56,832 nucleotides of DNA, from the IMG/VR virus record IMGVR_UViG_3300009073_000005, positions 1 to 56,832 of that record; one strand, 5' to 3'. The translations under genes and the position numbers were made by a program. Position 1 is the first letter of the stretch; each line of letters starts with the position of its first letter. Source of the DNA: a virus. Below, piece by piece: positions 22,892 to 37,677 of this stretch. A model generated the notes under the pieces. It worked only from the letters and a program-made list of their open reading frames with translations, searched no databases and was not told the DNA's origin.

Positions 22892-23042
22892 TTTTATTTA
22901 TACCACAAGCCAGCGTATTGGATATATCTAAAAACAGATCTGTATCATAATGAATCAAAAATGCTGCCCACTTTTCCTCGGTAAACGTTTTCAGTCTTTC
23001 CAGTTTGTACCTTTTCCCCATGTATTCAAAATTTACTTTCAT
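22839..23042 (-). CDS. Hypothetical protein (67 aa)
   Basis: 4-nt overlap with the recombinase stop. Confidence 0.45.
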   Translation of the reverse strand: MKVNFEYMGKRYKLERLKTFTEEKWAAFLIHYDTDLFLDISNTLACGINKIVQCSNDARQCTRTQPL

Positions 23043-24239: not shown

Positions 24240-24278
24240 ATATTAATCTAGGAAAGCGTCATTGTAAAGTACTTTGAT
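24240..24278 (-). promoter_or_regulatory. Early leftward promoter Pa with palindromic operator
   Basis: Minus strand: TTTACA (24268-24263), 17 bp, TAATAT (24245-24240). Operator TGTAAAGTACTTTGAT at 24263-24278. ACTGGGAG SD downstream. Confidence 0.65.
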
Positions 24279-24315
24279 TCTTTATTTGATCGGGCTTTGA
24301 TTTTAAACAACAAAA

Positions 24316-24332
24316 ACGGGGTAGGCCCCCGT
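24316..24332. terminator. Bidirectional rho-independent terminator
   Basis: Hairpin ACGGGG-tagg(c)-CCCCGT flanked by an A-run on the 5' side and TTTTATTTT on the 3' side. Confidence 0.7.
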
Positions 24333-24366
24333 TTTATTTTGCTTTTCTTATTTGATCGTTATTTGA

Positions 24367-24564
24367 TTACGGCATAAAATAAGCAGACTCTAACTTTGGA
24401 TATCTTGGTTTTTCATCTTCGCTTATGATCTTTGCGATCTTTTCCATCGCGTCTTCAAAGTCGGTGAACGATATACTGAACTCAATATCAGAGTTAGATA
24501 TAACCAGCGAGTTCATCTTGTGTTCTGGCGGGTCAATCTCTATCTGCTGAACGGAGAGGCTCAT
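24367..24564 (-). CDS. Hypothetical protein (65 aa)
   Basis: Last gene of its operon, followed by the terminator. Confidence 0.5.
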   Translation of the reverse strand: MSLSVQQIEIDPPEHKMNSLVISNSDIEFSISFTDFEDAMEKIAKIISEDEKPRYPKLESAYFMP

Positions 24565-24938
24565 TAAAATATATTCCGATATTCAACCGTGACCCCGATG
24601 TCTTCCCAGAACTTTATGCCCTTTTTCATGCCCGCACTTATTCCGAAATCCGTGTACACCGCAGCCAAGGTAGCAGAAGACTCACCTATCTTTAGCCCGA
24701 AGCTTATACCGTCATCTCTCTCTTCTTTGACGAGATCGTTCATGAATCTAGTGTACAAAAGGTGCGACGCGAACGGCACCTCGCCCCTCTCGTACGAGTC
24801 CCTGGCACACTTCATCGCGTATTGCTCGTTTCTCTCAAAATCGCCACCGTACGGTGACTCGATGATCGTTAAAAACTTGTTTTCAACTCTTGGGCCGAAA
24901 AGCTTTCTCTTAACTTTGTTTACTGTCTTCTTGATCAT
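24564..24938 (-). CDS. Nucleoside 2-deoxyribosyltransferase-like (DUF4406-like) protein
   Basis: Start trimmed to an ATGA overlap with GGTGGAG RBS. IIESPYGGD..NEQYAMKCARDSYERGEVPFASHLLY..AVYTDFGISAGM family pattern. Confidence 0.5.
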   Translation of the reverse strand: MIKKTVNKVKRKLFGPRVENKFLTIIESPYGGDFERNEQYAMKCARDSYERGEVPFASHLLYTRFMNDLVKEERDDGISFGLKIGESSATLAAVYTDFGISAGMKKGIKFWEDIGVTVEYRNIF

Positions 24939-25231
24939 GACTCCACCTTCTTTTCGGTAAGCTGTCCGGGCGCGTATCCTTTGTTGCATCTCACCAGATA
25001 CACCTGGTCGAAGCACATCTCGTCAATGACAGCAGCGGTTGCGTTTGTGTACGAGTTGAACTCCATTATGACCTTTGTTTTGTCGTTAGAGATATGAGAC
25101 GAGTGCGTCAGCATGGAGTAGTTATCGAGCCCGCCGTTTTCCTTCATAAAGTCGGCAGCCTGTTGAGTCTTACCAGAACCTGAATGTCCGCAAAATATAT
25201 ATGCCTCACAGCTTGGGTTTTGTTTGTTCAT
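24935..25231 (-). CDS. Small P-loop NTPase (98 aa)
   Basis: Walker A GHSGSGKT. Confidence 0.55.
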   Translation of the reverse strand: MNKQNPSCEAYIFCGHSGSGKTQQAADFMKENGGLDNYSMLTHSSHISNDKTKVIMEFNSYTNATAAVIDEMCFDQVYLVRCNKGYAPGQLTEKKVES

Positions 25232-25233
25232 AA

Positions 25234-25503
25234 CTATGTCCCCTTTCCTAGTTCTTGCTCGTCACGATATTCTTGTATCATGTTCTCGGCCTCGTATATG
25301 CACTCCATTAAAACATCTTCTGCGCTTGCCGTCTCCATAAAGTAGGTATCCACAGACAGTTTGTTGCTTGGCAGCCCGTAGCCGTCCAGGTCAAAAACGC
25401 ACTGAATAACTCCGTCAAAAGTGCTGCCAGATTGCGGCCCCAGCTTCACTATGTCAGCAGAGCTGATCTTATCCTTAAGGTTTATCTCGTTGTATTGGTT
25501 CAT
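25234..25503 (-). CDS. Hypothetical protein (89 aa)
   Basis: Operon member, acidic. Confidence 0.5.
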   Translation of the reverse strand: MNQYNEINLKDKISSADIVKLGPQSGSTFDGVIQCVFDLDGYGLPSNKLSVDTYFMETASAEDVLMECIYEAENMIQEYRDEQELGKGT

Positions 25504-25691
25504 TCTCCGTAATCCTCCAGTATCTGTTCAAGTTCAAGGTGCGATTTCTGCGCCTGAATCATATAGTAGTCATCTTTGTGTGACATCTTGTGATACATTT
25601 TTATATCGTCTCTGAGACCCTGTACCCGCAAACTGTGCCAGCAGAAACCCTTATCCGAATCTTGGCACATTTCATGTATGCAATTTGTCAT
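25500..25691 (-). CDS. Hypothetical protein (63 aa)
   Basis: 4-nt overlaps on both sides. Confidence 0.5.
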   Translation of the reverse strand: MTNCIHEMCQDSDKGFCWHSLRVQGLRDDIKMYHKMSHKDDYYMIQAQKSHLELEQILEDYGE

Positions 25692-25882
25692 TCTAAGCAG
25701 TCCTCCAGATCCTTTATTCTTTCGCCGTGATCTTCTATGGTTAGGTTTGCGGCGTCAATCTCGGACTCCGCCCACTCCACCCAGTCATAAACCGAGTTAA
25801 TCTGGTTATTCTTTAGGTAGGCGTCCACCAAAAGGTATGAAAGAGCGGACCATATCAATATTTCTCTAATAGTTTTAATCAT
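25688..25882 (-). CDS. Hypothetical small membrane protein (64 aa)
   Basis: N-terminal hydrophobic helix ILIWSALSYLLV, 4-nt overlap. Confidence 0.5.
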   Translation of the reverse strand: MIKTIREILIWSALSYLLVDAYLKNNQINSVYDWVEWAESEIDAANLTIEDHGERIKDLEDCLE

Positions 25883-26072
25883 CTAATTCTACCCCGATTT
25901 TTCCGTTAACAACTACGGCGTACGAGAGCGGCATCTCCTCGCGAATCGTCCGTGAAAGCTGGTACAACTCGTCTTTTGAAAAGTTCTCTGCGTTTATTAT
26001 GTACTTCTTGCCATCGACAAGCTCAAATACATTCAAGCCGGAATTATCCCTTATCGTTATTTCTTTTTTCAC
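25875..26072 (-). CDS. Hypothetical protein (65 aa)
   Basis: Operon member. Confidence 0.5.
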   Translation of the reverse strand: MKKEITIRDNSGLNVFELVDGKKYIINAENFSKDELYQLSRTIREEMPLSYAVVVNGKIGVELDD

Positions 26073-26235
26073 TCTTCGCCTCCTCCAGTTTCGACTCTAT
26101 GTTTTCGAGGTGCTCTACGATGTCATCAAGCTTGTTATTATTTGATAACCTTTCCTCAAACATCTTCCAAAGACCACCACCGGCAGCCGCTGCGAAGGCA
26201 ATAAGCCCAGCCTTTCCTATTCCGTCATTTGACAT
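26044..26235 (-). CDS. Hypothetical small membrane protein (63 aa)
   Basis: Hydrophobic GLIAFAAAAGGGLW segment followed by a charged tail. Confidence 0.45.
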   Translation of the reverse strand: MSNDGIGKAGLIAFAAAAGGGLWKMFEERLSNNNKLDDIVEHLENIESKLEEAKSEKRNNDKG

Positions 26236-26599
26236 TTCTCTTCACCAATCCTATTGAGGTTATGTTTATCTTGTCGAATCTCATTCTATCCGAATCCCCA
26301 GATATCCTTGCACTTACAGGCACGAACGCCGGAAGGAATGCGTACCCGAGATCGATCCATTCATCCGGGGGCATTTTTCTGTACTTTCCTTTGGAGAAAA
26401 ATACCCCAGAATCGTCTACATCAAGCTTAACAAGCATCTCCGGCTCCGATTCGTGGTCGTGGCTCATAAATACACGCTTGTTTATTTCCACAACATCGAA
26501 GCACCCGGAAGCGTAAACATCTCCCTCGTGGTCAGGTTCCTCGTACTTTATAACGTATTGCTTCTCGTCGAGATCGAATTTCTTAAATCTATCACTCAT
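26225..26599 (-). CDS. Hypothetical protein (124 aa)
   Basis: Operon member. Confidence 0.55.
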   Translation of the reverse strand: MSDRFKKFDLDEKQYVIKYEEPDHEGDVYASGCFDVVEINKRVFMSHDHESEPEMLVKLDVDDSGVFFSKGKYRKMPPDEWIDLGYAFLPAFVPVSARISGDSDRMRFDKINITSIGLVKRNVK

Positions 26600-26952
26600 A
26601 AATTGAACGCCTCTGTCGCGACATCTTTAATCATCTGACTATCGCCAGATTTTAAACGGTAAACACAGTAAGAAATCACTTCATCCGAGAATGTTCTTGT
26701 CTTGATCGACTCGGAGTTAATATCCGCGATAAGAGCCGCCGAAAGAACGCCAGAGGCATTTTCGATTATCTGATTTTTGAAGCTTTCCGGTAAGTCAGGT
26801 AGCGATTTCAGGTTTGTAGTAAGCAGGAAGTCGAACACCTCTCTAATGCTTTTCTGCGAAGCCTTTTCGTCTTCTTTGTCGATCTCAGCTCGTATATCTG
26901 AATCAATATAAAGCTCGACGCACTGCTCAATTTTTCTTTTAATTTCTGTCAT
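26596..26952 (-). CDS. Hypothetical protein (118 aa)
   Basis: Operon member, 4-nt overlap. Confidence 0.55.
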   Translation of the reverse strand: MTEIKRKIEQCVELYIDSDIRAEIDKEDEKASQKSIREVFDFLLTTNLKSLPDLPESFKNQIIENASGVLSAALIADINSESIKTRTFSDEVISYCVYRLKSGDSQMIKDVATEAFNL

Positions 26953-26953
26953 C

Positions 26954-27235
26954 TTATTTCCCTATTGCCTTTTCTATTAAAATCATAACAACCATGTTTT
27001 TTATGTCTTCTTTTAGTTCTTTTATCTTTTCTTTTTTTAGCCTTACTAGATAGTTACCCGATATGATGCTGTAAGATTCGCTCACAGACCTTTCGATAAT
27101 CTTCGCGAAATCTGATGGAAGTATAACCGAAGGATCGGCGCAAACATAATCACAAACATCATCTATTACCTCATCGAGAATGAATCCCAGCCTCTTAAGG
27201 CATACATCATATGTCCATTCATTTAAAGTCTCCAT
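26954..27235 (-). CDS. Hypothetical protein (93 aa)
   Basis: Operon member. Confidence 0.5.
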   Translation of the reverse strand: METLNEWTYDVCLKRLGFILDEVIDDVCDYVCADPSVILPSDFAKIIERSVSESYSIISGNYLVRLKKEKIKELKEDIKNMVVMILIEKAIGK

Positions 27236-27275
27236 AGTGAAAAACTTACACCATGTCCGAACAAATGCAACATTT

Positions 27276-27563
27276 TTATAGGCCGTCCCCTTTGGCGTGT
27301 CCTATTATTTCCTCTTTGCTTTTCCGCAGCATTCCTGAACGCTCCGGGCAAAAAGCAGAGTGCTTGTCTATCATCATCAAAATAAAATTCTCGTCACCGG
27401 GAGCTACCCCGTGAGCGATAAGGTCCAGGCCGTGATCGACGATCGTTTTTGAGCTCATCGTGCCTATACCCAGCCCGAACATCAACCAAGAGTATTCAGG
27501 GCTCCCCTCTTCCATGTGGTCCAGTATGTCTATCATAATATTCTCTCTGGCGGGTTTCGCCAT
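27276..27563 (-). CDS. Hypothetical protein (95 aa)
   Basis: Operon member. Confidence 0.5.
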   Translation of the reverse strand: MAKPARENIMIDILDHMEEGSPEYSWLMFGLGIGTMSSKTIVDHGLDLIAHGVAPGDENFILMMIDKHSAFCPERSGMLRKSKEEIIGHAKGDGL

Positions 27564-28198
27564 TTATTCCTGAGTCTTTTAGGATAGTTTTTGGCGGTTA
27601 TGAGTTTGTGGTTTATCGAGTTACCATAAAGATCGTACTCATGATCTGTTATTGATAACTTAAAGAACGTCCTAACGCCTTCGGTTCCGCATTCGTTTAC
27701 ACGGTGCGGCACGTTTGGCCGTAGCATTATCAAACTCTTGTTGTGAAAAGAGTACTCCTTTTCGGCTGGCAGGTTTTTTCGCATATCCACCAACGACTGG
27801 TCGTGGCAGTCGGTCATCGTAATTTGGTAACGGTTAAAGATAGTCGGTTGCGTGTTTGACCATATGTAGTTCATGTCATTGGTTCCGAACCCATCGCAAT
27901 GATACCCTCTCCGGTTGTATTGAGTTCTGTCGAACTGATACAGGTGCTTAAGCGTAACGTATACGTTTTTGCCGAAGGCAGAGTCTTTTGGGTTTCTATC
28001 ATCGAAGTCCTTAAGGCACTCGTTTATCATCGCAACACAGGGCCTCATGCGCTTTTCTAACACAACCCTCGATGTGCCTTTATTTTTGCACTTAAAGTAC
28101 TGATAAAAACACAGCTCGTCCATCGACATTTCAAAAACGCCAAGAGACTCCGGGTGCCCAGTCCTTACTATTTCACTATCCATTCCAGATCCTCCCAT
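27533..28198 (-). CDS. Putative 2OG-Fe(II) dioxygenase-fold protein
   Basis: GYHCDGF (HxD), NVPHRV (distal His) and RTFFKLS (RxS) occur in the order and spacing typical of the 2OG-Fe(II) jelly-roll. The exact start is uncertain. Confidence 0.45.
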   Translation of the reverse strand: MGGSGMDSEIVRTGHPESLGVFEMSMDELCFYQYFKCKNKGTSRVVLEKRMRPCVAMINECLKDFDDRNPKDSAFGKNVYVTLKHLYQFDRTQYNRRGYHCDGFGTNDMNYIWSNTQPTIFNRYQITMTDCHDQSLVDMRKNLPAEKEYSFHNKSLIMLRPNVPHRVNECGTEGVRTFFKLSITDHEYDLYGNSINHKLITAKNYPKRLRNKWRNPPERIL

Positions 28199-28341
28199 TT
28201 CTCAAGTATCTCATCGATTCGGTGAGACTGATATCCGATATCTTCGCCGCTTAGATACATCTCGCACAGCCTGGTCGCGTATATAAAAGAGAAGCCATAT
28301 TTGCGGTTTAGTTCATGCACTATGTATTCAGATTCGCTCAT
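28168..28341 (-). CDS. Hypothetical protein (57 aa; start trimmed to the ATGA overlap)
   Basis: The ATG at 28341-28339 overlaps the TGA of the upstream gene at 28340-28338. Confidence 0.5.
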   Translation of the reverse strand: MSESEYIVHELNRKYGFSFIYATRLCEMYLSGEDIGYQSHRIDEILEKWEDLEWIVK

Positions 28342-28703
28342 TTCATTAGCTCCTTGTAAAGCGATGGCCGTATCTCTTGCCAATTCATCGCGTCGTAGTT
28401 CCCAACAGACCAGTAGCACTTGCCATCAAGCACGCCAACACAAAGGCACCCATAATAATTACCGGGTCCGACCTCGACAACGTTTCTTATGTTCTTTTCT
28501 ATGTATTCGGCACGCCTTTCTTCTTCATCAAGCTTCGCAACCCTTAGCTGCTCGGCCCTCTCGCGTCTTTCGTGCTCGGAGGCAATCTGCTCAGCCGCCT
28601 TTCCCTTTTCGGTCCAATGTCTTTCATCGTCAAAGGCCGTTACGTCTACTTTTCCATGGCTTCTGTCGTTTTCATCGACACGGGACCTGCAAAATTCTCT
28701 CAT
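28338..28703 (-). CDS. Hypothetical protein (121 aa)
   Basis: E/R-rich helix then a Cys-containing C-terminal domain. ATGA overlap with the HTH gene. Confidence 0.55.
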   Translation of the reverse strand: MREFCRSRVDENDRSHGKVDVTAFDDERHWTEKGKAAEQIASEHERRERAEQLRVAKLDEEERRAEYIEKNIRNVVEVGPGNYYGCLCVGVLDGKCYWSVGNYDAMNWQEIRPSLYKELMK

Positions 28704-28879
28704 TTTTCCACCAGTACGTGCATAATTTTAGTGTTTTCGTCTACCCAGGACTCAAGATCTGGAAACAGCTCGACCTCGCCACGGTCGCTCTGCTTCAAAT
28801 AACCCTTCCTGATCCAGTTACTGACCGTCTGACGGGTCACGTTACAACGTTCTGCAACCTCAGAAATAGTACAGATCAT
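28700..28879 (-). CDS. Small HTH DNA-binding protein (59 aa; absent from the supplied ORF track, which lists nothing shorter than 60 aa)
   Basis: My translation: MICTISEVAERCNVTRQTVSNWIRKGYLKQSDRGEVELFPDLESWVDENTKIMHVLVEK. Classic HTH (VAERCNVTRQTVSNWIRKG). The TGA overlaps the ATG of the next gene. Confidence 0.7.
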   Translation of the reverse strand: MICTISEVAERCNVTRQTVSNWIRKGYLKQSDRGEVELFPDLESWVDENTKIMHVLVEK

Positions 28880-28880
28880 G

Positions 28881-29078
28881 CTACTTTACCTCCGGGAAAA
28901 GCGCCTTAAGTAGTTTTATCTCGCGTTCTTCGAGGAATTCAAAGGACCACGGGACGATAAGATCGCCGTTCTCGTCAGGGTTTGGGTATGGTCGCGATAG
29001 TTTAATCGCAAGCACGATCCTATCACCAATAGACAGCCGACGCGCGGCCTCGTTTTGTTCTTCTGTATATTTAATCAT
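28881..29078 (-). CDS. Hypothetical protein (65 aa)
   Basis: Operon member directly upstream of the HTH gene. Confidence 0.5.
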   Translation of the reverse strand: MIKYTEEQNEAARRLSIGDRIVLAIKLSRPYPNPDENGDLIVPWSFEFLEEREIKLLKALFPEVK

Positions 29079-29196
29079 CGTCTTCTTCCTTTTTCATTAT
29101 CCTTTTTGCACACTCATACACGAAGGCCGCTGTGAAGATGGCAAAAACCAACTTCCAGCAAGCGATCGCAGTACTAAACAATAGATCGACTATCAT
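29071..29196 (-). CDS. Possible small membrane protein (41 aa; not in the ORF track)
   Basis: My translation: MIVDLLFSTAIACWKLVFAIFTAAFVYECAKRIMKKEEDDD. It fills the gap between two genes and overlaps the start of the next. Confidence 0.4.
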   Translation of the reverse strand: MIVDLLFSTAIACWKLVFAIFTAAFVYECAKRIMKKEEDDD

Positions 29197-29200
29197 ATCT

Positions 29201-29746
29201 TTATGCCTTCATCGCAGAGATACATCTTTTCAGATCTTCAAGGGCAACCAGAATTTCCATCGCCTTTTTAGGGTCAAATTCTACCTCTTCGTCCTCATTA
29301 ACCTCTTCTGGTTCCTTTTCCTCGTCAGAATCATTATTCATCGAGAAGATTTTAGAAAAGAAGGCCGGAGATACACTCAACTCTTCGCTATCAACATCTT
29401 CAGCTTCAGCTTCCTCTTCCTCGATCGCCGCGTCCCGTGCTTTGAGTACTTCTTTTATGCCGCGAATCAGTACAATAAAAAACGCATCCTCAACGCTTGT
29501 ATTTAGAACCTTTGCGATATCGGTTCCAAGCAAGAATTTCATACTTGCAGATAAGTCCTTTACAAACTTTTCGTTCATGTCCGAGTCTTTAATGGCACCG
29601 GCGATTCGGTGAAGATTGAATCCTTCAATACTACCTAGGTCTAGCCACTCTTGTTTCGTGATTTCGTGGTCCGCATTTTTGAAATATTGCTCCATCGTTG
29701 CGGTTCCGATCTTTTCTTTCATTGTTCTGTTAACTTCATTTGTCAT
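29201..29746 (-). CDS. Early protein with a strongly acidic C-terminal half (181 aa)
   Basis: First gene after Pb, starts MTNEV. Runs EEEEAEAEDVDSEE and DSDEEKEPEEVNEDEEVEFD. Confidence 0.6.
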   Translation of the reverse strand: MTNEVNRTMKEKIGTATMEQYFKNADHEITKQEWLDLGSIEGFNLHRIAGAIKDSDMNEKFVKDLSASMKFLLGTDIAKVLNTSVEDAFFIVLIRGIKEVLKARDAAIEEEEAEAEDVDSEELSVSPAFFSKIFSMNNDSDEEKEPEEVNEDEEVEFDPKKAMEILVALEDLKRCISAMKA

Positions 29747-29825
29747 TTCATTTTCCTTTGGCCTTTAGCCGTTAGTTTTCACTTAAATTTTTGATTTCCA
29801 GATTTAGATTCCCAGTCTTTTTGTT

Positions 29826-29864
29826 AAGCTATTACACATAATCCATTACAGCAAGTACTTTACA
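29826..29864 (-). promoter_or_regulatory. Probable early leftward promoter Pb with an operator half-site
   Basis: Minus strand: TGTAAAGTACTTGCTG, with TTGCTG as -35, 17 bp, TAGCTT. Weaker than the other copies. Confidence 0.4.
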
Positions 29865-30150
29865 TACATTCCGCGAAAAAATCGTTCAGGATATCTCCCA
29901 TGTGCATCGACATTAGCCCGGCGCTGAACTTAAGCATGGCGGTTTCCTGCTCACGCCCCAATTTTGCGGCCATAATCGCAACCGAAATCTTATTTGACTC
30001 TCCCTGTAGCTTTGGGCTTACTATTTTCGTGAAATAGTCAATATCCGCGCTTTTTGCGGGGGGCCGGTACAGGTCATAGGCGGTTTCGCGCCTAATCCTG
30101 TCTATAGCGCCCTGTATCGCGTTGTTTATGTGATTTTCAAAGTCACGCAC
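29860..30150 (-). CDS. Hypothetical protein (96 aa)
   Basis: Second gene of the Pc operon. Confidence 0.5.
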   Translation of the reverse strand: MRDFENHINNAIQGAIDRIRRETAYDLYRPPAKSADIDYFTKIVSPKLQGESNKISVAIMAAKLGREQETAMLKFSAGLMSMHMGDILNDFFAECM

Positions 30151-30171
30151 AATAAAACCCCAAAGGGTGGA

Positions 30172-30486
30172 CTAAACCACCTCAAAAGCCATCTCAAGGT
30201 TGCCCAATGTCGCTTTTTTCGCCATTTCAAAGTCATCTCCAATCAATTCGGAATAAGCATCAAGAGAAGCCTCTATTACAATCTCAGAAAAGCATAAAAG
30301 CTTACTCCTTAGCGCATTTATTCCGAACTTCTTAACAAATTCGATGTCCTTGTTTAGTTCTGGCATTCCAATGTAACCGCCAAGCTCCCAATTATCCTGT
30401 GTCATCATGTGAGTGACGGTTTTGTATCTTTCTTTGTATTCTCTAGCCGAACCTGCGATCTCTATAATAATTTTTGCGTTTGTCAT
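30172..30486 (-). CDS. Hypothetical protein (104 aa)
   Basis: First gene after Pc. ACTGGGAGG SD, starts MTNAK. Confidence 0.6.
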   Translation of the reverse strand: MTNAKIIIEIAGSAREYKERYKTVTHMMTQDNWELGGYIGMPELNKDIEFVKKFGINALRSKLLCFSEIVIEASLDAYSELIGDDFEMAKKATLGNLEMAFEVV

Positions 30487-30508
30487 TTTGACCTCCCAGT
30501 CTGATATC

Positions 30509-30547
30509 AGATTAATTCATTGATTCGATGTTGTCAAATACTTTGCA
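30509..30547 (-). promoter_or_regulatory. Early leftward promoter Pc with operator variant
   Basis: Minus strand: TTGACA (30537-30532), 17 bp, TAATCT (30514-30509). Operator TGTCAAATACTTTGCA. A/T-tract DNA upstream at 30560-30600. Confidence 0.65.
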
Positions 30548-30979
30548 ACAGTTAATCACGATTTTTTTTAAAAATTTTCAATTTCAAATTTCGAATTTGG
30601 ATTAACAAAAACAAAAGATGGCCGATATTCGCTGGCTTTACAACTGTATCAAATTTTGACAAATAAATTTTGCGTGTAGATCGACCGTTTTAAGGGCTCA
30701 AAATGGTAAACGGACTTTTGGCGCAACGAGGGCGATTCTAAGGCCCGCTGTCGGCTCAGCGTCCACGTCATAGGGGCACACGGCGCACACCCCGCAGAAT
30801 CGAAACTGCGAAGCCTGGTGCGGTATTATGTTCTCAGGTGTGACCGTTTCACTGGGCGCAATGGTTGCGGGGTCGGTGCTTGGACTACCTCGTACACGAG
30901 AACCCAATAAAAACAAGGGGTTGCGGTTGATAGGCTAAATAAAAGTGTCTCATTCACCGCAAAACCGCTGTCTTATGCG

Positions 30980-31896
30980 CGTCGCACTTTATATTAAAGA
31001 AAAAGACCAATCAATGCGGGCACATACGATGCCGAAATTCTAAAGCGCGACATTTTGCACCCCCTAAATTGCCCTATTTCGTGTTTGTCGCGTTTTAGAT
31101 TCTCTTTTGTTTCCGGGGGGTTAGGTGCCAAAAAGTGCCCAAAAAAGTTAAAACGCGACAAATTGGGGGTAACACAATATTCCGCATCGACGAATTACCG
31201 TACACTCGCGCGTGTTTAATTATTAAAATAAATATATAGTTAACTCCCTTTATTTAGCGCCACTTATCCCCATGTCTTACCCCCTGAATACAATTCTGCT
31301 TTTTTGTGTGTTTTAAAGGCTTACCCCCCAATTTGTCGCACTTTACGTTTTTGAGGGGTGTTTTTGCGTGTAAGTATCTAATATCATTGACGAATCTAAA
31401 GTGCGACACGGTGGAATGCGGGTTTGCGGCGATGCGCCCCGAATAACCCAATGATATCGGTGTATTACATAAGTGCGACATTTTGGCAGATCGTTCTATT
31501 ATTTTGTCGCGTTGTCGCGCTTTAGATTCTAAAACCGCCACCTGGGTGCCATAATCGGGGTAGATCGTTGATATAAATCGAACGGCCTATCGCGTATATT
31601 TTAATCACATACACTATATCTTGGCCCGTTCGTGTGTGTTCACCGTACACCAAATAGGCCGACCTAATCTCGGGGATTTCGGGAAAGTTTGGTCTGCGTT
31701 TTTTGTGTACGGTCTGAATATTTGATTAGCACTGTATGATAAATAACACCGGAGCGTGCGCCCTTTATTGTATATATTAACCGAATGAGTGGTGTGCGGC
31801 CAAATACTTGTCAAAGTACTTTGAATTACCCCTGTCCGATATGATACACTTCGCGTTTTCAAGTTAAAGTGCGACAAAGTGTCGCGTTTTAGATTT
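30980..31896. repeat. Array of 11 copies of a 12-17-nt motif (GAATC)TAAA[G/A][T/C]GCGACA in both orientations
   Basis: Plus-oriented copies at 31036-31052, 31149-31160, 31392-31408, 31469-31480, 31865-31876. Minus-oriented copies at 30980-30991, 31086-31102, 31334-31345, 31505-31511, 31513-31529, 31880-31896. Confidence 0.85.
31809..31825. promoter_or_regulatory. Orphan operator-like palindrome inside the ORF-free segment
   Basis: TGTCAAAGTACTTTGAA shares the core AAAGTACTTT with the early operators, but no -10 box sits at 17 bp on either side. Confidence 0.4.
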
Positions 31897-32156
31897 TGCA
31901 TCATATTGATACAGAAATAGTGTCTCACCTGTAAAGCCAGAGCAACATATATGTTGCCCCAGGTATACATTAAAGGCCCCAATGTATACCCCAATGCACG
32001 GTCATGCACGCACCGATTTGTGCCTAATGCCGTCACGTGATAGGGTTAGGTGTGCCCGCATACTAACTAGCGAGCGCGTTCCGGGTCTAAGTCATCCAGG
32101 CATTCCCGGCCTAGCATGGGGATAGGTAAAAACCTCTGGTTGTCATAGGCGTAGCT

Positions 32157-32513
32157 ATGACCATTCTGGGTGTGTGTGTAAACCCTGGCGCGTGCTGTGG
32201 CCATCCGGTGCGGGTAATCACGGAGGGATGGATACCCGTCGAGATGGCTTTACCTATTTACAGGCCGTATATGGTGTGCAAGCGTCTATATATGATAACA
32301 AGAAAATACGACCAAATAACAGAAGAATTCACCGTTAAGAGTACGCTGTCCGGGGACAAGAAATCACTACAGGTTATCGTTAGCGGCGGCGATGAAAGTT
32401 ACGAATACAACCTGATGCGTGCCACAAAGCTTAGCCGGAAAAGGGTGTACTCTGGAATAGATCACGCCATAGGAAAGTACCGAACATTGCGGTGTCGTGA
32501 TTACATTGGATAG
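32157..32513 (+). CDS. Hypothetical protein (start uncertain; possibly an internal ATG)
   Basis: Plus-strand ORF in an otherwise leftward region with a weak RBS. The C-terminal two thirds look protein-like. Confidence 0.35.
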   Translation: MTILGVCVNPGACCGHPVRVITEGWIPVEMALPIYRPYMVCKRLYMITRKYDQITEEFTVKSTLSGDKKSLQVIVSGGDESYEYNLMRATKLSRKRVYSGIDHAIGKYRTLRCRDYIG

Positions 32514-32883
32514 ACCAACACCCGCCCAGACGTCACTATTTATCGGCGGGCTAGGCATACCGGTTTCTTTCAATGCAACCTGGGACGATGAATTTCAGGG
32601 CGCTTTTTTGGGTCCTGGTGTACCTACCCATTGTATAGTCGCGCCGCATTATTACGATAGCGCCGGGCAACACTTAGCCGCATCGATGATAAACACAATT
32701 TGCAAAATTGAAGGCTGGCTTATGATTTACACAGAACACGATCACAAGAACTACGGAGTACCGCTCGATCATGTCTATGTTGATATGGTGTTTAACCGGA
32801 GCGGTATATTTAAAGAAGAATACGGCAGCGCGTCCGTTATAACCTTTAGCTTTCGGCATGAGCACGTAAAAGCCCTCGACTAA
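32497..32883 (+). CDS. Hypothetical protein (128 aa, GTG start)
   Basis: Plus-strand ORF overlapping the previous one, followed at once by a strong terminator hairpin. Confidence 0.45.
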   Translation: MITLDRPTPAQTSLFIGGLGIPVSFNATWDDEFQGAFLGPGVPTHCIVAPHYYDSAGQHLAASMINTICKIEGWLMIYTEHDHKNYGVPLDHVYVDMVFNRSGIFKEEYGSASVITFSFRHEHVKALD

Positions 32884-32915
32884 GTGTTACACCTAAGTAA
32901 CACCCAATCGAGGGC
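32872..32915. terminator. Bidirectional terminator between convergent genes
   Basis: Outer stem GCCCTCGA/TCGAGGGC and inner stem GTGTTAC/GTAACAC, with T-rich runs on both sides. Confidence 0.65.
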
Positions 32916-32934
32916 CCTTTTGTACCTTTTCCGC

Positions 32935-33243
32935 CTATTCCTTAACGACAATGCTCCCATCGTTCATTAGCGTGTATTCGTATTCTTCACCCCATGACTC
33001 ATCGAAAGCAACAACCCCCCACCCGGTCGTGTCGGACGTGTCTAGGTTGTGTTTTTTTCCAAGAAAAACCGAACTGCGTAACAGTTGCGCGAATTTGTAA
33101 TTTGGGTCTGTCCCCCTTTTTGCTACAAACATCTTGTTGAATTCAACCAGCCATCCTGCGGTAGCCTCTGGGTATCCGTCCCAGTGCTTGTAAACCTTAG
33201 CCAAATTGAAACCTTCTATCTTTATCGTTGCTCGTGTTGCCAT
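32935..33243 (-). CDS. Hypothetical protein (102 aa)
   Basis: Last gene of the Pe operon. Confidence 0.55.
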   Translation of the reverse strand: MATRATIKIEGFNLAKVYKHWDGYPEATAGWLVEFNKMFVAKRGTDPNYKFAQLLRSSVFLGKKHNLDTSDTTGWGVVAFDESWGEEYEYTLMNDGSIVVKE

Positions 33244-33274
33244 CTTAATCTCCTTTTTTTTAACCAGGTTTTAT

Positions 33275-33565
33275 CTACTTTAATCCTTCAAAGGCTAGTG
33301 CTCGTTTAATCTTGTCACCAAGTGCCACAGACTCTGAAATAGTTTCGCCTAGCTCGATCATCGCTCTAGCTAAACCAGAGAAAGGACCAGTTATAGCGCC
33401 ATCAACCTCGACTATCTCGATAACTCTTTTAGCGTGTACAAGTGCAAGCTTGTTTTTGCCTATATTTAAAGCATCCCCTTTTGGGCCGAGTCTTCCGTCT
33501 CTAGCCATTTCTGCTGTCTTTGCTGCTAACTTGATTTGTGCGATTTGTAGTTGTGATGTTTTCAT
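33275..33565 (-). CDS. Hypothetical protein (96 aa)
   Basis: First gene after Pe, AGGAGG SD. Confidence 0.55.
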   Translation of the reverse strand: MKTSQLQIAQIKLAAKTAEMARDGRLGPKGDALNIGKNKLALVHAKRVIEIVEVDGAITGPFSGLARAMIELGETISESVALGDKIKRALAFEGLK

Positions 33566-33588
33566 TTCGACCTCCTAGGTACATACCC

Positions 33589-33627
33589 AGTATAAACGAT
33601 CACTTTGCACTTGTAAAGTACTTTACA
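33589..33627 (-). promoter_or_regulatory. Early leftward promoter Pe with perfect palindromic operator
   Basis: Minus strand: TTTACA (33617-33612), 17 bp, TATACT (33594-33589). Operator at 33612-33627, extended to the 20-bp palindrome CTTGTAAAGTACTTTACAAG. Confidence 0.65.
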
Positions 33628-33662
33628 AGTATAAAGGTCGATTTGTGTCGAATCGTTACGAA

Positions 33663-34076
33663 TTAAACAAAACACCTATAACCCGGAAAACTTTCTGCAA
33701 CACTAAAGGTTAACGAATAAAGCCCTCTGCCATTAACACCGGCCACAAAAGATTCGACGCTGCACTTGTGGGGCTCCCCGTCCAAATTAAGATCTATAAG
33801 CTCGGCTGTTCGGTGTTTTTTTCTTGCGTATGTGAGCAATGTTTTCGACATAATCCCCGAAATATTTATTTTTCGCGGATTAATGTAATGCCCTACTACC
33901 TTTATCCGAAGATCTTCTGTTTCGAACGTTCTTGGCCTATATTGACCGTTAAAGACATCTACAGCCGATATGGCAGGTGGCCTTACCCCTTGAACGCCCG
34001 TATCGATGCAGAATGTCCCAAAAGCTACCGTTCTTTTGGTGGCTGCCTGATTACTGAATTTTATATAGTCCAACAT
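33663..34076 (-). CDS. Hypothetical protein (137 aa; start set just after the upstream stop)
   Basis: The ATG at 34076 follows the upstream stop at 34078. Confidence 0.5.
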   Translation of the reverse strand: MLDYIKFSNQAATKRTVAFGTFCIDTGVQGVRPPAISAVDVFNGQYRPRTFETEDLRIKVVGHYINPRKINISGIMSKTLLTYARKKHRTAELIDLNLDGEPHKCSVESFVAGVNGRGLYSLTFSVAESFPGYRCFV

Positions 34077-34077
34077 A

Positions 34078-34446
34078 TTACGCCTCTTTCGCCAGAATTT
34101 CAAAGTGTGCTTCGGTTGCGTGAAGTGTCGCGTTTGTACTTTCTCCCAGTACCGTCATTATCAATTCAAAGGCCGAATGATCTTCTTTTCTATCTATCTT
34201 CACAGAGACCCTTGATACGAAAGTGGGCCCACCGAGCTTTCCGATGTCCAAGTACACGCTGCGATCGCTTAAAGCGTCCGTTCCCTTATCTTCAAGAACA
34301 GAGACCCGCGAGGCGTCTTTTCTTATGTCCACACCCATCTCAGCGAGCTTGCCTATAAAGTGTTCGTCCTCGGCTTTTGTTATGTTCTCTGAGGCGGTGT
34401 AAATATCTGTTGTTCGTTCTTCTTGTTCTTTCATTGTTGTCTCCAT
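34078..34446 (-). CDS. Hypothetical protein (122 aa)
   Basis: Operon member. Confidence 0.5.
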   Translation of the reverse strand: METTMKEQEERTTDIYTASENITKAEDEHFIGKLAEMGVDIRKDASRVSVLEDKGTDALSDRSVYLDIGKLGGPTFVSRVSVKIDRKEDHSAFELIMTVLGESTNATLHATEAHFEILAKEA

Positions 34447-34796
34447 GTCTCGTAGCTGGTTTTATTTACTTTGAGCTCGATTCCGTTTTTCATGTAAAAG
34501 GCGTAAACCTGGGTCGGTGATACGTATATCTTCTCGGTGTCGTTAATCTTTTGTCTTTTCTTCATCTTTCGGTATTTTCTGCCGAACGGTGACATCTTAA
34601 GCTTTTCGAAGTTCTTAATGTATAGCTTGGTTGCGAATACCCGCGCCGCATGTTCTGACCTTTCGATCGTGTTAACCATTTCAATCGGTAGCCCGAGCAT
34701 ACTTTCGCTCGATAGTCTCAAAGTCGGCATTTTGGGCTCTTCGGGGTAAACGTTGTGCGGTAATAGCTTAGGGATCTTTTGGTATACGCGACCCAT
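34431..34796 (-). CDS. Hypothetical basic protein (121 aa) with a KMSPFGRKYRKMKK motif
   Basis: The ATG at 34796 follows the upstream stop at 34798. Shares the motif with 35514..35720. Confidence 0.5.
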   Translation of the reverse strand: MGRVYQKIPKLLPHNVYPEEPKMPTLRLSSESMLGLPIEMVNTIERSEHAARVFATKLYIKNFEKLKMSPFGRKYRKMKKRQKINDTEKIYVSPTQVYAFYMKNGIELKVNKTSYETWRQQ

Positions 34797-34797
34797 A

Positions 34798-35061
34798 TTA
34801 AACAACCCGCGCGAATCGAACAGTGCCTTTTGCCGGGTGATACATATATGCAACACCTAACAGGTCGAAAACTTCCGGGTCTATCTTGTAAAAGTAAAAT
34901 CCGTCTGTCATTAGACCTGATCGTTTGCATGAAAGAGACGAGCAAGCTGATCGTATGTCTGAGCCGTTGAATGCCTCAAAGTTTGAACTTAGCGATGACA
35001 TTTTTACCGCGCTTACTGCTTTGTTGAATTTTTCGATTTGTTGTTCTTTTAGGTTTGTCAT
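34798..35061 (-). CDS. Hypothetical protein (87 aa)
   Basis: First gene after Pf. ACTGGGAGG SD, starts MTNLKEQ. Confidence 0.55.
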   Translation of the reverse strand: MTNLKEQQIEKFNKAVSAVKMSSLSSNFEAFNGSDIRSACSSLSCKRSGLMTDGFYFYKIDPEVFDLLGVAYMYHPAKGTVRFARVV

Positions 35062-35085
35062 TTGTAGCCTCCCAGTTACCTATCC

Positions 35086-35124
35086 AGATTAACCTATCGT
35101 TTCTGTATTGTAAAGTACTTTACA
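35086..35124 (-). promoter_or_regulatory. Early leftward promoter Pf with perfect palindromic operator
   Basis: Minus strand: TTTACA (35114-35109), 17 bp, TAATCT (35091-35086). Operator at 35109-35124. Confidence 0.65.
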
Positions 35125-35311
35125 ACGAATAATTAGGGTATTTGTCGTTTTTTACGCCTACCCGGACAATTTCGCCGTTAACCGTGCATCTGAAATCTAA
35201 AAAGTGCCGGTAACGTATCTCGCGAACCGAAAAGCAGAACAACATAAGATCGTAATGGATATACTCGATCGGCTTTTTTAATCCGAAAGCTATGCGGAAA
35301 TATTCCATCAC
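35120..35311 (-). CDS. Hypothetical protein (63 aa)
   Basis: Operon member, 4-nt overlap upstream. Confidence 0.45.
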   Translation of the reverse strand: MMEYFRIAFGLKKPIEYIHYDLMLFCFSVREIRYRHFLDFRCTVNGEIVRVGVKNDKYPNYSL

Positions 35312-35517
35312 CTAGTTTCCTTTGGCATTTTTGGTCTCGGCATCCAATAAAAAATATCCCCGCAGCAAGATATGTCGTCTATGATCTCGCTGTGGAAGTA
35401 CGCTGTACCGTCATCTTCGATTCGCCTAAATTCTGCCTCAACTATTCTGCCAGAAACTATCACAAGTACGGTATCTCCCTCATTCGGCGGGGTCTCTATT
35501 GTTAAAAAATCATTCAT
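35308..35517 (-). CDS. DUF551-like protein (69 aa)
   Basis: TVLVIVSGRIVEAEF..FYWMPRPKMP resembles the DUF551 C-terminal WMPLP pattern. Confidence 0.5.
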   Translation of the reverse strand: MNDFLTIETPPNEGDTVLVIVSGRIVEAEFRRIEDDGTAYFHSEIIDDISCCGDIFYWMPRPKMPKETR

Positions 35518-35720
35518 TTCTTACCTCTCCTGATCTTTCGCCATTTGCTGCCGAATGCGGACATCTTTCTGTGCTCCCACGCGCTTGCGTTAATGCAGAG
35601 AATAATTGTGGACATAGTTCTACCAGAACCGCGCCCGGCCATATCGTTTTCGAGAACCTTGCGAACATCTTCTGGCATTTCTGCGTCCGGGCGCAGGTCC
35701 TTTTGTTTAAAAAATATCAC
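35514..35720 (-). CDS. Hypothetical basic protein (68 aa) with a KMSAFGSKWRKIRR motif
   Basis: 4-nt overlaps. Shares the motif with 34431..34796. Confidence 0.5.
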   Translation of the reverse strand: MIFFKQKDLRPDAEMPEDVRKVLENDMAGRGSGRTMSTIILCINASAWEHRKMSAFGSKWRKIRRGKK

Positions 35721-36217
35721 GATATCTCCTCGCGGAGCATGTTAAAGATCTCCGCATTTCTTCGCGCATCGTCGAGTGCGTCGTGTGTGTGTTTTTGTTT
35801 TGTCTTTATCTTCCTGATATTCGACCGCAGGTTTTTCTTTATGCCTTTATAGAGACTGTTTAGGTTCAAACAGCTATAACCTAGCGCCGAGCTCTCACCA
35901 TATTCGGCAAGATAAGAGCAGGTGAACATCCAATCAAAGGCATTATCTACAACCGCTACCTTTCGGGATGGTGTTTTGCTTAACCACCTGTCGAATGCCT
36001 TCATGCCTTCCTCGGGAGGTTTAAAATTCATTGATTGCTCCCTGGTTACTCCTGAAACCTTCAAAGCACTGTCGAGGTAACATAAACTTACTGGCCGCAA
36101 GTAACTCATAAACTCCTCGCCAGTATCACAGTTTACTGCACCGATCTGTATCATCGAATACCTTAATGGGTGAGGGCCGTCGGCCTCAATGTCTATCGAT
36201 ATGTGCTCTATGCTCAT
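35717..36217 (-). CDS. DnaQ-like DEDDh 3'-5' exonuclease
   Basis: ExoI SIDIEADG, ExoII VVDNAFDW, ExoIII HDALDDARRNAEIF. Confidence 0.75.
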   Translation of the reverse strand: MSIEHISIDIEADGPHPLRYSMIQIGAVNCDTGEEFMSYLRPVSLCYLDSALKVSGVTREQSMNFKPPEEGMKAFDRWLSKTPSRKVAVVDNAFDWMFTCSYLAEYGESSALGYSCLNLNSLYKGIKKNLRSNIRKIKTKQKHTHDALDDARRNAEIFNMLREEIS

Positions 36218-36789
36218 ATCTCATTGCCCCAGTTATCCCACCCTTCTTTTTCTCGCCTTGCGAACATCTCGAGCCTGCTTACGTCACCTAGGGATTCCAC
36301 GATCATGTCTTGAACGATATCTGGCTTAACGCTATGTCCGAGCTTTGGGCACTTGATATCCACTGTAGTTTCAAATAGCTGTGGCACTTTCTCGCTCGCA
36401 AGTTTTAGCGGCCTGCCCTTTCGGTCTTTTGACGCCCAAAGGCAGAACTCGCTGTTTGGTTTTGTTAGCGATGCCCTGGGACCTTGCGAGCCTACCAGGG
36501 TCTCGCCATCTTTTTTTGTTTTAAACCAATTAAATGCACAGCCCCGATACACGAGTCCCCATGCGTCGATCGCCTCGATGGCGTTCTCTAGCTTTGGCCA
36601 CGTGCCCCAGACGAATACGACGCACTTATCGTTTGTTAGGTCATAAACCGGAAGATCGTTTATATCGTCCTGCGTCATTAGGCTGTAGTGATTACCAGCA
36701 GCGCCCATTTTTGTTTGCGATCCGTAGTAAGGCCAGGGCGGGTCTAAGAGAACTACGTCGTATTTTTTGTTTGTTATGTTTTCGATCAT
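36214..36789 (-). CDS. MT-A70 family DNA N6-adenine methyltransferase
   Basis: YDVVLLDPPWPY catalytic motif, GHSVKPD, EMFARREKEGWDNWGNE C-terminus. Confidence 0.8.
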   Translation of the reverse strand: MIENITNKKYDVVLLDPPWPYYGSQTKMGAAGNHYSLMTQDDINDLPVYDLTNDKCVVFVWGTWPKLENAIEAIDAWGLVYRGCAFNWFKTKKDGETLVGSQGPRASLTKPNSEFCLWASKDRKGRPLKLASEKVPQLFETTVDIKCPKLGHSVKPDIVQDMIVESLGDVSRLEMFARREKEGWDNWGNEI

Positions 36790-37163
36790 TTTATAGGCTC
36801 CACTGTGTAGCTGTTTGGTGTGTTTGTTTTTATTATCCGCACCGGGTATTTTCTCTTTATAAATCTAAGAAATGGCACCCCGGGGAAGATGGGAATTCTT
36901 ATGTACGCTATCTCGTGGTCATATATCCATGACGAATCGCTGTAAACCAGGTTCAGGTTTTCGTGCTCAACGAGGCCAAGGCAGTATCCTTTTGCGTCTG
37001 GGATATCGCTCTCTACGTCTTCCTTTGTTATCTTTAGAACGCCTTTAAAGTCTCTCCCGAAGTCCTCGATAACTGCGTTACCTTCATCTTTTTTACAATT
37101 CATGTCTGCACACCCTTTTACCCTTATAGCCCTTCCGTAGCATTGGTGAAAGACTTTACTCAT
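36786..37163 (-). CDS. Hypothetical protein (125 aa)
   Basis: 4-nt overlaps on both sides. Confidence 0.55.
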   Translation of the reverse strand: MSKVFHQCYGRAIRVKGCADMNCKKDEGNAVIEDFGRDFKGVLKITKEDVESDIPDAKGYCLGLVEHENLNLVYSDSSWIYDHEIAYIRIPIFPGVPFLRFIKRKYPVRIIKTNTPNSYTVEPIK

Positions 37164-37444
37164 AAATACTTTCCAGTAAGCTCTACCAATTTCTTGTAGT
37201 TAATTCTTTCTAGGTTCACATGTTCGCTTACGAGCGAGAGAGCGTACTCTTGACAGTTTTTTTTGTCGTGATCGCCCTGGTAGTCCATGTTCATCTTCGC
37301 AACCGCAAAACAGCGAATAAACAATTGATCCAGGCATTTTGAATTCCCTATGTAATTTTGTTCATCCGATGCAGTGTTCATGTTCTTGTTCATTAGTAGT
37401 TTTGAAGCTTCCAGTGATACTTTATTTTTAATTGATGTTTCCAT
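37160..37444 (-). CDS. Hypothetical protein (94 aa)
   Basis: First gene after Pg, GCTGGGAGG SD. Confidence 0.55.
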   Translation of the reverse strand: METSIKNKVSLEASKLLMNKNMNTASDEQNYIGNSKCLDQLFIRCFAVAKMNMDYQGDHDKKNCQEYALSLVSEHVNLERINYKKLVELTGKYL

Positions 37445-37464
37445 TTTGCCTCCCAGCTATATAA

Positions 37465-37503
37465 AGATTATCACCTATATTTATAAATGTAAAGTACTTT
37501 ACA
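37465..37503 (-). promoter_or_regulatory. Early leftward promoter Pg with perfect palindromic operator
   Basis: Minus strand: TTTACA (37493-37488), 17 bp, TAATCT (37470-37465). Operator at 37488-37503. Confidence 0.65.
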
Positions 37504-37638
37504 TATAAAAATTAAAGATTACTCATTTTGTTAACGGTCGGCGGTCCTTATGTTAAAAAATGGCGATTATTAAAATAAAGCACTTTAGGGAATTGTTCCC
37601 CCCTCCCGTATATATTAATACGGCTGTGATCTATATAT

Positions 37639-37677
37639 AGATTAGCATCCCGGTTTTCGATTGTAAAGTACTTTGAT
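37639..37677 (-). promoter_or_regulatory. Early leftward promoter Ph (tandem, upstream of Pg) with operator variant
   Basis: Minus strand: TTTACA (37667-37662), 17 bp, TAATCT (37644-37639). Operator TGTAAAGTACTTTGAT at 37662-37677. Confidence 0.6.

Follow-up and report, generated by a model that had tools for sequence, protein, structure and literature searches.

The operators of the lambdoid phages lambda, 434 and P22 are classical sites of helix-turn-helix (HTH) dimers, with half-site centres 10 bp apart. In their OR and OL regions, CI and Cro dimers bind 14-18-bp dyads whose half-sites lie one helical turn apart and which overlap the -35 and -10 elements of sigma70 early promoters, and several such sites cluster in a divergent control region. 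Here, we analyse a comparable arrangement in a viral sequence of 56,832 nucleotides (IMG/VR virus record IMGVR_UViG_3300009073_000005, positions 1 to 56,832; hereafter the window), which by its gene content belongs to a siphovirus-like phage. A leftward and a rightward arm diverge at 37.45-37.75 kb. The leftward arm, called early because of its gene content only, carries six promoter-like sites and a degenerate seventh in which a palindrome of up to 16 bp (TGTAAAGTACTTTACA) contains the -35 hexamer. To judge by their sequence, these sites are very probably sigma70-type promoters and the palindrome is plausibly an operator. This is a familiar kind of phage control switch, found in an otherwise uncharacterised phage. 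The lambdoid operators form two triplets, whereas the window has single sites, one at each of six or more promoters dispersed over 13.4 kb, and the centre of the dyad is its most conserved part. Neither a CI/Cro-type protein nor an intact integrase was found in the window.

Other phages place one repressor word at many dispersed units, as in the C1 regulon of phage P1 and the stoperators of mycobacteriophages L5 and Bxb1, and in this way one protein can silence much of the genome. Those words are asymmetric (17 bp and 13 bp), whereas the one studied here is palindromic and fixed at -37.5; moreover, the stoperators of L5 and Bxb1 lie within operons and block elongation. Streptomyces phage phiC31 has a conserved inverted repeat at each early promoter, where the repressor binds, but these promoters do not resemble sigma70 ones, and each repeat is located next to its promoter instead of forming the -35 element. 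In Bacillus phage phi29, the small dimeric protein p4 binds an inverted repeat over the -35 element of the early promoter A2b and switches it off. That repeat has 6-bp arms and a 15-bp gap, p4 also activates a late promoter, and no p4-like protein was found in the window. The promoter-early stem-loop cassettes of T4-type phages are, like the sites of the window, units repeated between small early genes. We rejected a cassette of this type here: no conserved hairpin follows the promoters of the window, their flanks have diverged, and the downstream genes are unrelated. The early cassettes of Felixounavirus coliphages (Escherichia phage EC6, 82.4-84.6 kb) share with the window an extended -35 (AAAGTACTTTACA or AAAGTATTTGACA), a distance of 17 bp to TAnnnT, and repetition between small early genes. 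They are conserved over about 80 nt and have a hairpin (GGGGCTTA..TAAGCCCC) across the -10, whereas in the window only the promoter blocks are conserved and the hairpin is absent.

A probable promoter family with a shared palindrome

Perfect copies of TGTAAAGTACTTTACA occur at 33612-33627, 35109-35124 and 37488-37503, and variants with three mismatches at 24263-24278, 30532-30547 and 37662-37677. These six sites with at most three mismatches compare with 0.31 expected in the window, and none of 100 shuffled sequences gave six. All are on the minus strand, where they read AAAGTAyTTkACA-N17-TAnnnT. The generic promoter pattern TT[GT]ACA-N17-TAnnnT occurs six times on the two strands of the window (around 0.9 expected by chance, by our own estimate), and these occurrences are exactly the six family sites. 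The elements of the leftward arm, with its predicted promoters numbered P1 to P7, are the following.

37639..37677, minus strand: promoter P1, ATCAAAGTACTTTACA-N17-TAATCT, outermost leftward promoter of the divergent control region
37576-37587, no strand assigned: operator-like site TAAAGCACTTTA between P1 and P2 (the middle site), one mismatch to the 12-bp core of the palindrome
37465..37503, minus strand: promoter P2, perfect TGTAAAGTACTTTACA-N17-TAATCT, followed by GGGAGG and the ATG of a gene of 94 amino acids (aa) at 37160-37444
35086..35124, minus strand: promoter P3, perfect palindrome-N17-TAATCT, then an 87-aa gene (34798-35061)
33589..33627, minus strand: promoter P4, perfect palindrome-N17-TATACT, then a 96-aa gene (33275-33565)
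31811-31824, no strand assigned: orphan site TCAAAGTACTTTGA, perfectly palindromic over 14 bp and lacking a -10 at a distance of 16-18 bp
30509..30547, minus strand: promoter P5, TGCAAAGTATTTGACA-N17-TAATCT, with consensus TTGACA and a weakened dyad, then a 104-aa gene (30172-30486)
29826..29864, minus strand: degenerate promoter P6, TGTAAAGTACTTGCTG-N17-TAGCTT, left half intact and -35 weak, then a leader of about 80 nt and a 181-aa gene (29201-29746)
24313..24335, no strand assigned: bidirectional intrinsic terminator, a 9-bp stem with five G-C pairs, 35 bp upstream of the P7 palindrome
24240..24278, minus strand: promoter P7, ATCAAAGTACTTTACA-N17-TAATAT, sharing a 19-nt identical stretch with P1, then a 162-aa gene (23734-24222) and a serine recombinase gene (23039-23737)

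All seven promoters, P6 included, have a spacer of exactly 17 bp. The -35 hexamer is TTTACA in five sites (five of six matches to the consensus), TTGACA in one (six of six) and TTGCTG in P6 (three of six). The -10 hexamer is TAATCT in four promoters, TATACT and TAATAT in one each, and TAGCTT in P6. TAATCT matches TATAAT at only three of six positions, yet it keeps the critical ones, -12T, -11A and -7T. In five of the six sites, GGGAGG and an ATG follow 17-24 nt past the -10. Averaged over all pairs of sites, identity reaches 0.79 for the left half of the palindrome, 0.92 for its right half and 0.83 for the -10, compared with 0.36-0.37 for the spacers and flanks and 0.25 for random sequence. 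Because the blocks are conserved between diverged spacers and flanks, we conclude that selection holds the motif and that it does not reflect recent duplication. The promoter-like sequences of the rightward arm lack the palindrome.

The conserved AAAGTAC at -42 to -36 lies outside the -35 hexamer, is invariant in five of the six sites and exactly mirrors the -35 side. Within the window, AAAGTACTTT occurs six times (0.1 expected) and the 12-bp core YAAAGTACTTTR, with at most one mismatch, six to seven times (0.24 expected). The left halves always keep YAAAGT, although they are free of the -35 constraint. The dyad covers 12-16 bp, with TGTAAAGT and ACTTTACA as its two halves and the -35 hexamer as its right end; three copies are perfect over 16 bp and one over 14 bp. 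A distance of 10 bp separates the centres of its outer hexamers, TGTAAA and TTTACA, and the centre of the dyad itself falls near -37.5 if transcription starts 7 nt after the -10. Direct reading of the plus strand revealed no -10 for a divergent promoter, so that the left half is not a second promoter facing the other way.

Most of this architecture had been described in a first-pass annotation of the sequence. Its coordinates and sequences for the palindrome and the variants were all correct on rechecking, as was its 17-bp spacing to the -10 on the minus strand, exact at six sites. Its assignment of the sites to a sigma70-type family agrees with the hexamers, the spacing, the orientation, the place ahead of a Shine-Dalgarno sequence and ATG, and the conservation in blocks. 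The distances were less accurate: the 17-24 nt from -10 to ATG had been given as about 20-35 nt, and the early region, put at 17 kb, spans 13.4 kb. The half site at 29853-29864 is real, but it is in fact the left two-thirds of the degenerate seventh promoter (29826-29864). The orphan noted at 31809-31825 is, more precisely, the promoter-less 14-bp palindrome at 31811-31824. Finally, all sites had been placed in intergenic gaps. This is true of most, but the palindromes of P3 and P6 carry stop codons of upstream open reading frames (ORFs): the TAA in the P3 palindrome ends ORF 35120-35311 and that in the P6 palindrome ends ORF 29860-30150. Transcription from upstream promoters should therefore read straight through these sites.

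The hairpin at 24313-24335 is the only strong terminator in the leftward arm, from which it follows that P1-P6 form one nested 13.4-kb unit. P7 sits behind this terminator and heads a separate unit. The P7 unit encodes the 162-aa protein, the 232-aa serine recombinase, a DUF3310 protein, a Dam-type methylase and RusA, and runs toward the terminase. The P2 operon holds an RNase_T exonuclease and an MT-A70 methylase. P1 has no ORF behind it; a non-coding leader of about 130 nt leads to P2, and its predicted fold is not better than that of shuffled sequence (z = -1.5). On the minus strand, the stretch 37504-37634 has small hairpins (CCGTAT..ATACGG and GGGAA..TTCCC) and a GGGAGGGGGG run, and could be a leader or a short RNA. 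The centre of the middle site is 88 bp from the P1 site and 86 bp from the P2 site, and it is accompanied by only a poor -35 with an 18-bp spacer.

The first genes behind the promoters are unrelated small ORFs, and comparison with each other showed that they are not paralogues. Four of them (24222, 29746, 30486 and 35061, minus strand) open with ATGACAAAy (MTN...), the Shine-Dalgarno context ACTGGGAGG is also common, and the conservation spans from -45 into the second codon.

The orphan site differs from the main palindrome by symmetry-preserving changes at +/-6 and +/-7 and sits in a 2.3-kb, ORF-poor, iteron-bearing region. The orphan and the middle site could each be a decayed promoter, and they are two cases only. 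Codon scores are near or below zero throughout 30550-32860, which has no convincing ORFs, and a search of the ORF-poor region (30.5-33 kb) against Rfam returned no known RNA. At 30980-31891, TGTCGCRYTTTA(GAWT) is repeated nine times with its orientation alternating strictly, out of ten matches in the window (1.2 expected), and three plus/minus pairs are spaced 61-63 bp apart. This iteron-like array (iteron TGTCGCRYTTTAGAWT) could mark an origin or a partition site. The TAAAGYGC of the repeat resembles the operator half-site TAAAGTAC.

Repression or intrinsic promoter strength

From the computed architecture and its statistics, we infer promoter firing, protein binding, the sign of regulation and the kind of protein involved as follows. 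The primary-sigma RNA polymerase of the host would transcribe the leftward arm from P1-P5, P7 and the degenerate P6. A dimeric DNA-binding protein, most likely encoded by the phage, would recognise the dyad, cover the contact of sigma region 4 and repress all promoters together, resulting in early shut-off during lytic growth or in silencing in a lysogen. P1-P6 would behave as one nested read-through unit ending at 24313-24335, with P7 restarting transcription under the same control. The 86-88-bp distances between P1, the middle site and P2, together with the orphan at 31.8 kb, may allow cooperative or looped binding. Repression is likelier than activation because a dyad centred near -37.5 would overlie the contact of sigma region 4 and misfits the class II position at -41.5. 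We hold the whole model, including a dedicated phage-encoded repressor of the dyad, only tentatively and give it slightly less than an even chance.

In favour of an operator, the right half of the dyad contains the -35 hexamer, which makes it overlap the core promoter, and two copies of the dyad (the orphan and the middle site) have no usable promoter beside them, although either could be a decayed one. RNA polymerase is not known to need a left half that mirrors the -35 half. The first-pass annotation had proposed the operator of one dimeric regulator, a view with which the symmetry and the overlap agree, but no regulator could be tied to the site. If the palindrome is an operator, one small protein and one 16-bp word would control about one quarter of the genome. 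They would form a compact and portable repressor-promoter pair and offer a way into the temporal programme of the phage.

Several observations weigh against an operator. The regulator was not identified among the phage proteins, of which the only one with a family-level HTH match (59 aa) may be of the terminase or Xis type. Every TT[GT]ACA-N17-TAnnnT promoter in the window has the extension, in one fixed register, and promoter and operator functions are thus inseparable within the window. In at least three different promoter contexts of Felixounavirus, N17-TAnnnT is preceded by the same 13-mers, with no shared protein. The dyad is conserved best in its central GTAC, whereas the middle of an operator is usually left free by HTH dimers. 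The searches yielded no relative with an early arm. The two relatives that were found (L058, from SRR33375164, and L059, from ERZ27315841) carry neither the early arm nor the motif. Their recovered fragments have no AAAGTAC-extended promoter and one generic sigma70-like site that lacks the extension, which counts in favour of an operator. The sigma70-like sites of these relatives and the strong Shine-Dalgarno usage point to a host with conventional promoters.

The alternative that survives best needs no dedicated regulator. AAAGTAy would be an intrinsic upstream extension of the -35, for example combining a proximal UP-like A-tract at -42 to -40 with a context that favours sigma region 4, and would make these the strongest promoters for the host polymerase. 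The palindromy would be a by-product, and the promoter-Shine-Dalgarno-ATGACAAA unit would spread as a cassette in the T4-type manner. We consider this unlikely, but a serious contender. It agrees with the common register of the extension in all six generic promoters, with the regulator not having been found, and with conservation that reaches ACTGGGAGG and the first codons, where four first genes encode MTN at the start of unrelated proteins. It also draws on Felixounavirus, whose early regions combine AAAGTACTTTACA, AAAGTATTTGACA or AAAGTACTTGACA at the -35 with 17 bp to TAnnnT. However, RNA polymerase is not known to require an exact GTAC at -39 to -36 or TGT at -45 to -43, and in three sites the extension matches the reverse complement of the -35 side precisely. 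Moreover, the dyad persists at the orphan and at the middle site with no usable -10, the diverged flanks mean that any cassette copying is not recent, and no stem-loop accompanies the promoter.

The repeated early cassettes of Felixounavirus coliphages such as Escherichia phage EC6 read AAAGTACTTTACA-N17 followed by TAAAGT, TACCTT or TATCTT. These phages also have separate promoters with AAAGTATTTGACA, identical to that of P5 here, and with AAAGTACTTGACA; no protein is detectably shared between them and the phage of the window. The genome paper of Felix O1 (PMC3185647) describes temporal control as unknown, and the promoters that it lists are all of a generic sigma70-like type. The match in sequence favours AAAGTAy as an intrinsic enhancer, though a regulator may act in Felixounavirus as well. 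It also raises the general question of whether AAAGTAy upstream of the -35 is a polymerase-level enhancer or a protein site. The hairpin of these phages, GGGGCTTA-N13-TAAGCCCC, spans the -10 in Escherichia phage EC6 (L056/L057, at 82473, 83785 and 84591) and in L028, L050 and L053. Variant copies (GGGGTTAT..ATAGCCCC) keep the pairing, and no description of the hairpin was found in the Felix O1 genome paper.

Searches for the word and the promoter pattern in other genomes gave few informative matches. The exact 16-mer occurs at 30 loci in IMG/VR, which is near chance, and two groups of these have repeated functional elements. Scans of IMG/VR with the promoter pattern and with protein seeds gave no match. 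A metagenome scan for the pattern returned 22 loci, each with a single copy and none homologous to the window; most are cellular promoters. A literature search for the motif returned only matches to 16S rRNA and primers. In one 1.6-kb metagenome contig (L005, 309-344), the exact 16-mer has TAATCT 17 bp downstream and lies just upstream of a bacterial gene for an HxlR-type regulator, and it is probably that regulator's own operator.

Such a case shows that cellular regulators use the word, and the phage might exploit the site of a global regulator of its host, a dimer of the NtcA/CRP family or TyrR-like, which would tie early transcription to host physiology. Judged by the consensus sequences, the perfect copies contain the TGTA-N8-TACA of NtcA, match eight of ten CRP positions as TGTAA-N6-TTACA and, as TGTAAA-N4-TTTACA, have the arms of the TyrR box. 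We nevertheless find this improbable. What the sites keep unchanged is the inner 10 bp, whereas P1, P7 and P5 have lost the outer GTA/TAC, the inverse of what NtcA or CRP needs; for class II control in particular, the outer GTA..TAC (or TGTGA..TCACA) should be conserved and the centre free. The centre lies near -37.5 and not at -41.5, and there is no TAnnnT 22-23 nt from TAC. NtcA, CRP and TyrR sites were accordingly dropped: TAC is 18 nt from the -10 and a good -35 is present, where a class II site would have about 22 nt and no -35 box, and the spacing of TyrR is 6 bp, compared with 4 bp in the window.

Candidate regulators and a primase-linked word

We examined four candidates for a protein that reads the dyad. 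The first three had been named in the first-pass annotation.

28700..28879, minus strand: candidate 1, 59 aa, with a MerR/HTH_17-type winged HTH, encoded inside the regulon
23734..24222, minus strand: candidate 2, 162 aa, the first gene behind P7
42769..43179, minus strand: candidate 3, 136 aa, antisense within the rightward replication arm
46262-46429, plus strand: candidate 4, an uncalled 55-aa HTH ORF (MITIKIRMLAEEVGVSRQTIYSLIKKG..., ..EEVGVSRQTIYSLIKKG..) directly after the primase/helicase gene

Among the three earlier candidates, the 59-aa protein has a family-level HTH match, whereas the 162-aa and 136-aa proteins match no family in Pfam or PHROGs. The 59-aa protein scores above the Pfam threshold (PF00376, 30.1 bits; PF12728, 30.2 bits) and was the sole HTH protein when all early and replication-arm proteins, the small ones also in concatenated form, were searched against Pfam and PHROGs. 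Its best PHROG match is phrog_57, a terminase small subunit (5e-6), and a DNA binder of the small-terminase or Xis type is an equally good reading. By eye, the C-terminus of the 162-aa protein has CxxC...CxxxC and an HTH-like stretch, RSLTESARMLMLSESVASAIS, from which DNA binding is only suggested, and the N-terminus of the 136-aa protein resembles a winged HTH. Neither has a homologue, the former among 1.84 billion representatives, and no relative of the latter was found in the PDB. Their structures, modelled with AlphaFold2 and no alignment, are too poor for a fold search, with a predicted local distance difference test (pLDDT) of 47 for the 162-aa and 36 for the 136-aa protein. Sequence searches of the PDB with the candidate regulators gave nothing useful. 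None of the 59-, 162-, 136- and 55-aa proteins is linkable to the palindrome by computation.

The fourth candidate comes from a comparison with an AT-rich lineage of phages (G+C content around 30%; L026, L051, L049, L042, L036, L055 and others), which have two to three copies of TGTAAAGTACTTTACA inside TGTAAAG arrays. In L026 (4892-5040), L051 (439-587) and L049 (4056-4230), direct and inverted (G)TGTAAAG repeats form the array and the exact copies are 66-153 bp apart. The arrays lie just upstream of the gene for a Prim-Pol/DUF3987 primase-helicase in these three, and 0.2-5 kb from it in L042, L036 and L055. The primase of this lineage ends in an HTH (..LLGVSRQTIYNFIK). By our reading, -7-type boxes (TAnnTTTG) occur nearby, which suggests Bacteroidota-type promoters. 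If so, the word does not act as a sigma70 -35 in these phages, which would show that it can serve as a protein-binding site by itself. In L032, L034 and L055, the arrays stand beside a gene whose product has, by eye, a sigma-factor-like N-terminus. Profile searches detected no homology between the array phages and the window.

TGTAAAGTACTTTACA could be a regulatory word common to several phage lineages, with a small HTH module tied to the primase as its reader. In the AT-rich phages the module is fused to the primase-helicase and the word stands in arrays near that gene; in the phage of the window the module would be the separate 55-aa ORF. Here the word would have spread to the -35 of every early promoter, and the DNA-binding module of the replication initiator would also shut off early transcription. 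We give this a slim chance. Very unlikely, too, is the more specific proposal that the 55-aa protein encoded by the primase gene's neighbour binds the sites and, like plasmid Rep proteins, represses promoters through palindromic copies, replication and early transcription sharing one word. It is attractive in that the AT-rich lineage has its 16-mer arrays near a primase with a C-terminal HTH, and three sites lie in the divergent region of the window itself. Furthermore, a hidden Markov model of that HTH finds the 55-aa ORF as by far its best match in the window (E-value 2.9e-6, versus 0.03 for the 59-aa HTH protein). On the other hand, the GVSRQTIY signature is very common among HTHs, nothing else in the AT-rich lineage is convincingly homologous to the window, the primase of L058 is not followed by such an ORF, and the iteron array at 30980-31891 is a better candidate for an origin. 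The Pfam matches of the ORF (HTH_17, AbiEi_4 and MerR) are below threshold. It has a poor Shine-Dalgarno spacing and overlaps, out of frame, a called 138-aa gene (46252-46668), with a codon score of 0.24 versus 0.17 for the called frame; codon statistics do not separate the two frames. The sequence at 46262-46429 is identical in three independent contigs, so that an assembly frameshift is not involved; a genuine overlapping gene and a frameshift fusion are both possible. As a regulator, it is a lead, not a result.

Least credible of all is that GTAC or AGTACT is the target of a phage adenine methylase (MT-A70 or Dam-type) and that methylation sets promoter activity: the phage encodes two adenine methylases, one of them in the P2 operon, and AGTACT occurs 16 times (6.5 expected) with half of its copies in these sites, but GTAC overall is neither enriched nor avoided (158 versus 146 expected), and the conservation reaches well past a 4-6-bp methylase site.

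The gain at present is one of annotation: seven transcription units, one terminator and four regulator candidates in an early region whose proteins are nearly all orphans.

The phage and its lineage

The window is nearly all of a metagenome contig of 56,850 bp (ENA ERZ27241782 k141_383880), and stretches of its replication arm are 100% identical in one Joint Genome Institute contig and one Logan contig. The genes and regions recognised outside the promoter family are the following.

62-4480, minus strand: tape measure protein
15047-17164, minus strand: portal fused to a MuF domain
18259-19647, minus strand: large terminase (TerL)
21806-22327, in the P7 unit: Dam-type adenine methylase
23039-23737, minus strand: serine recombinase of 232 aa, with a full Resolvase domain and only the start of a Recombinase domain
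36214-36789, in the P2 operon: MT-A70 adenine methylase
37.75-51.2 kb, plus strand: replication arm, which also encodes an SF2 helicase
43326-46223, plus strand: DUF3987 primase/helicase

This lineage is barely sampled and has hardly any sequenced relatives. Neither a nucleotide search with 30-38 kb (megablast) nor a translated search with the primase (tblastn) found a match among 50,697 phage records. The primase has a single homologue, at 27% identity, among 5.8 billion proteins, and a 303-aa protein has one relative in the homologue searches. All matches of TerL and the portal are below 40% identity and scattered over unrelated hosts, so the host cannot be inferred from them.

Three minor observations concern other parts of the window. 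The 232-aa serine recombinase is too short for a large serine integrase, and the next ORFs are unrelated to it (DUF3310 and others). A second tRNA-like gene at 40186-40258 (plus strand), 420 nt downstream of a tRNA-Met (39691-39765), scores 30.8 bits against the Rfam tRNA family (gathering score 29); its anticodon arm is 2 nt over-long, and it was missed by ARAGORN and by the Rfam run on the whole window. A heptamer tandem, (AACTAAC)n (CTAACAACTAACAACTAACAACTAACAACTAAGG), lies at about 47515-47555 (plus strand), directly upstream of the Shine-Dalgarno sequence of the gene at 47564-48016.

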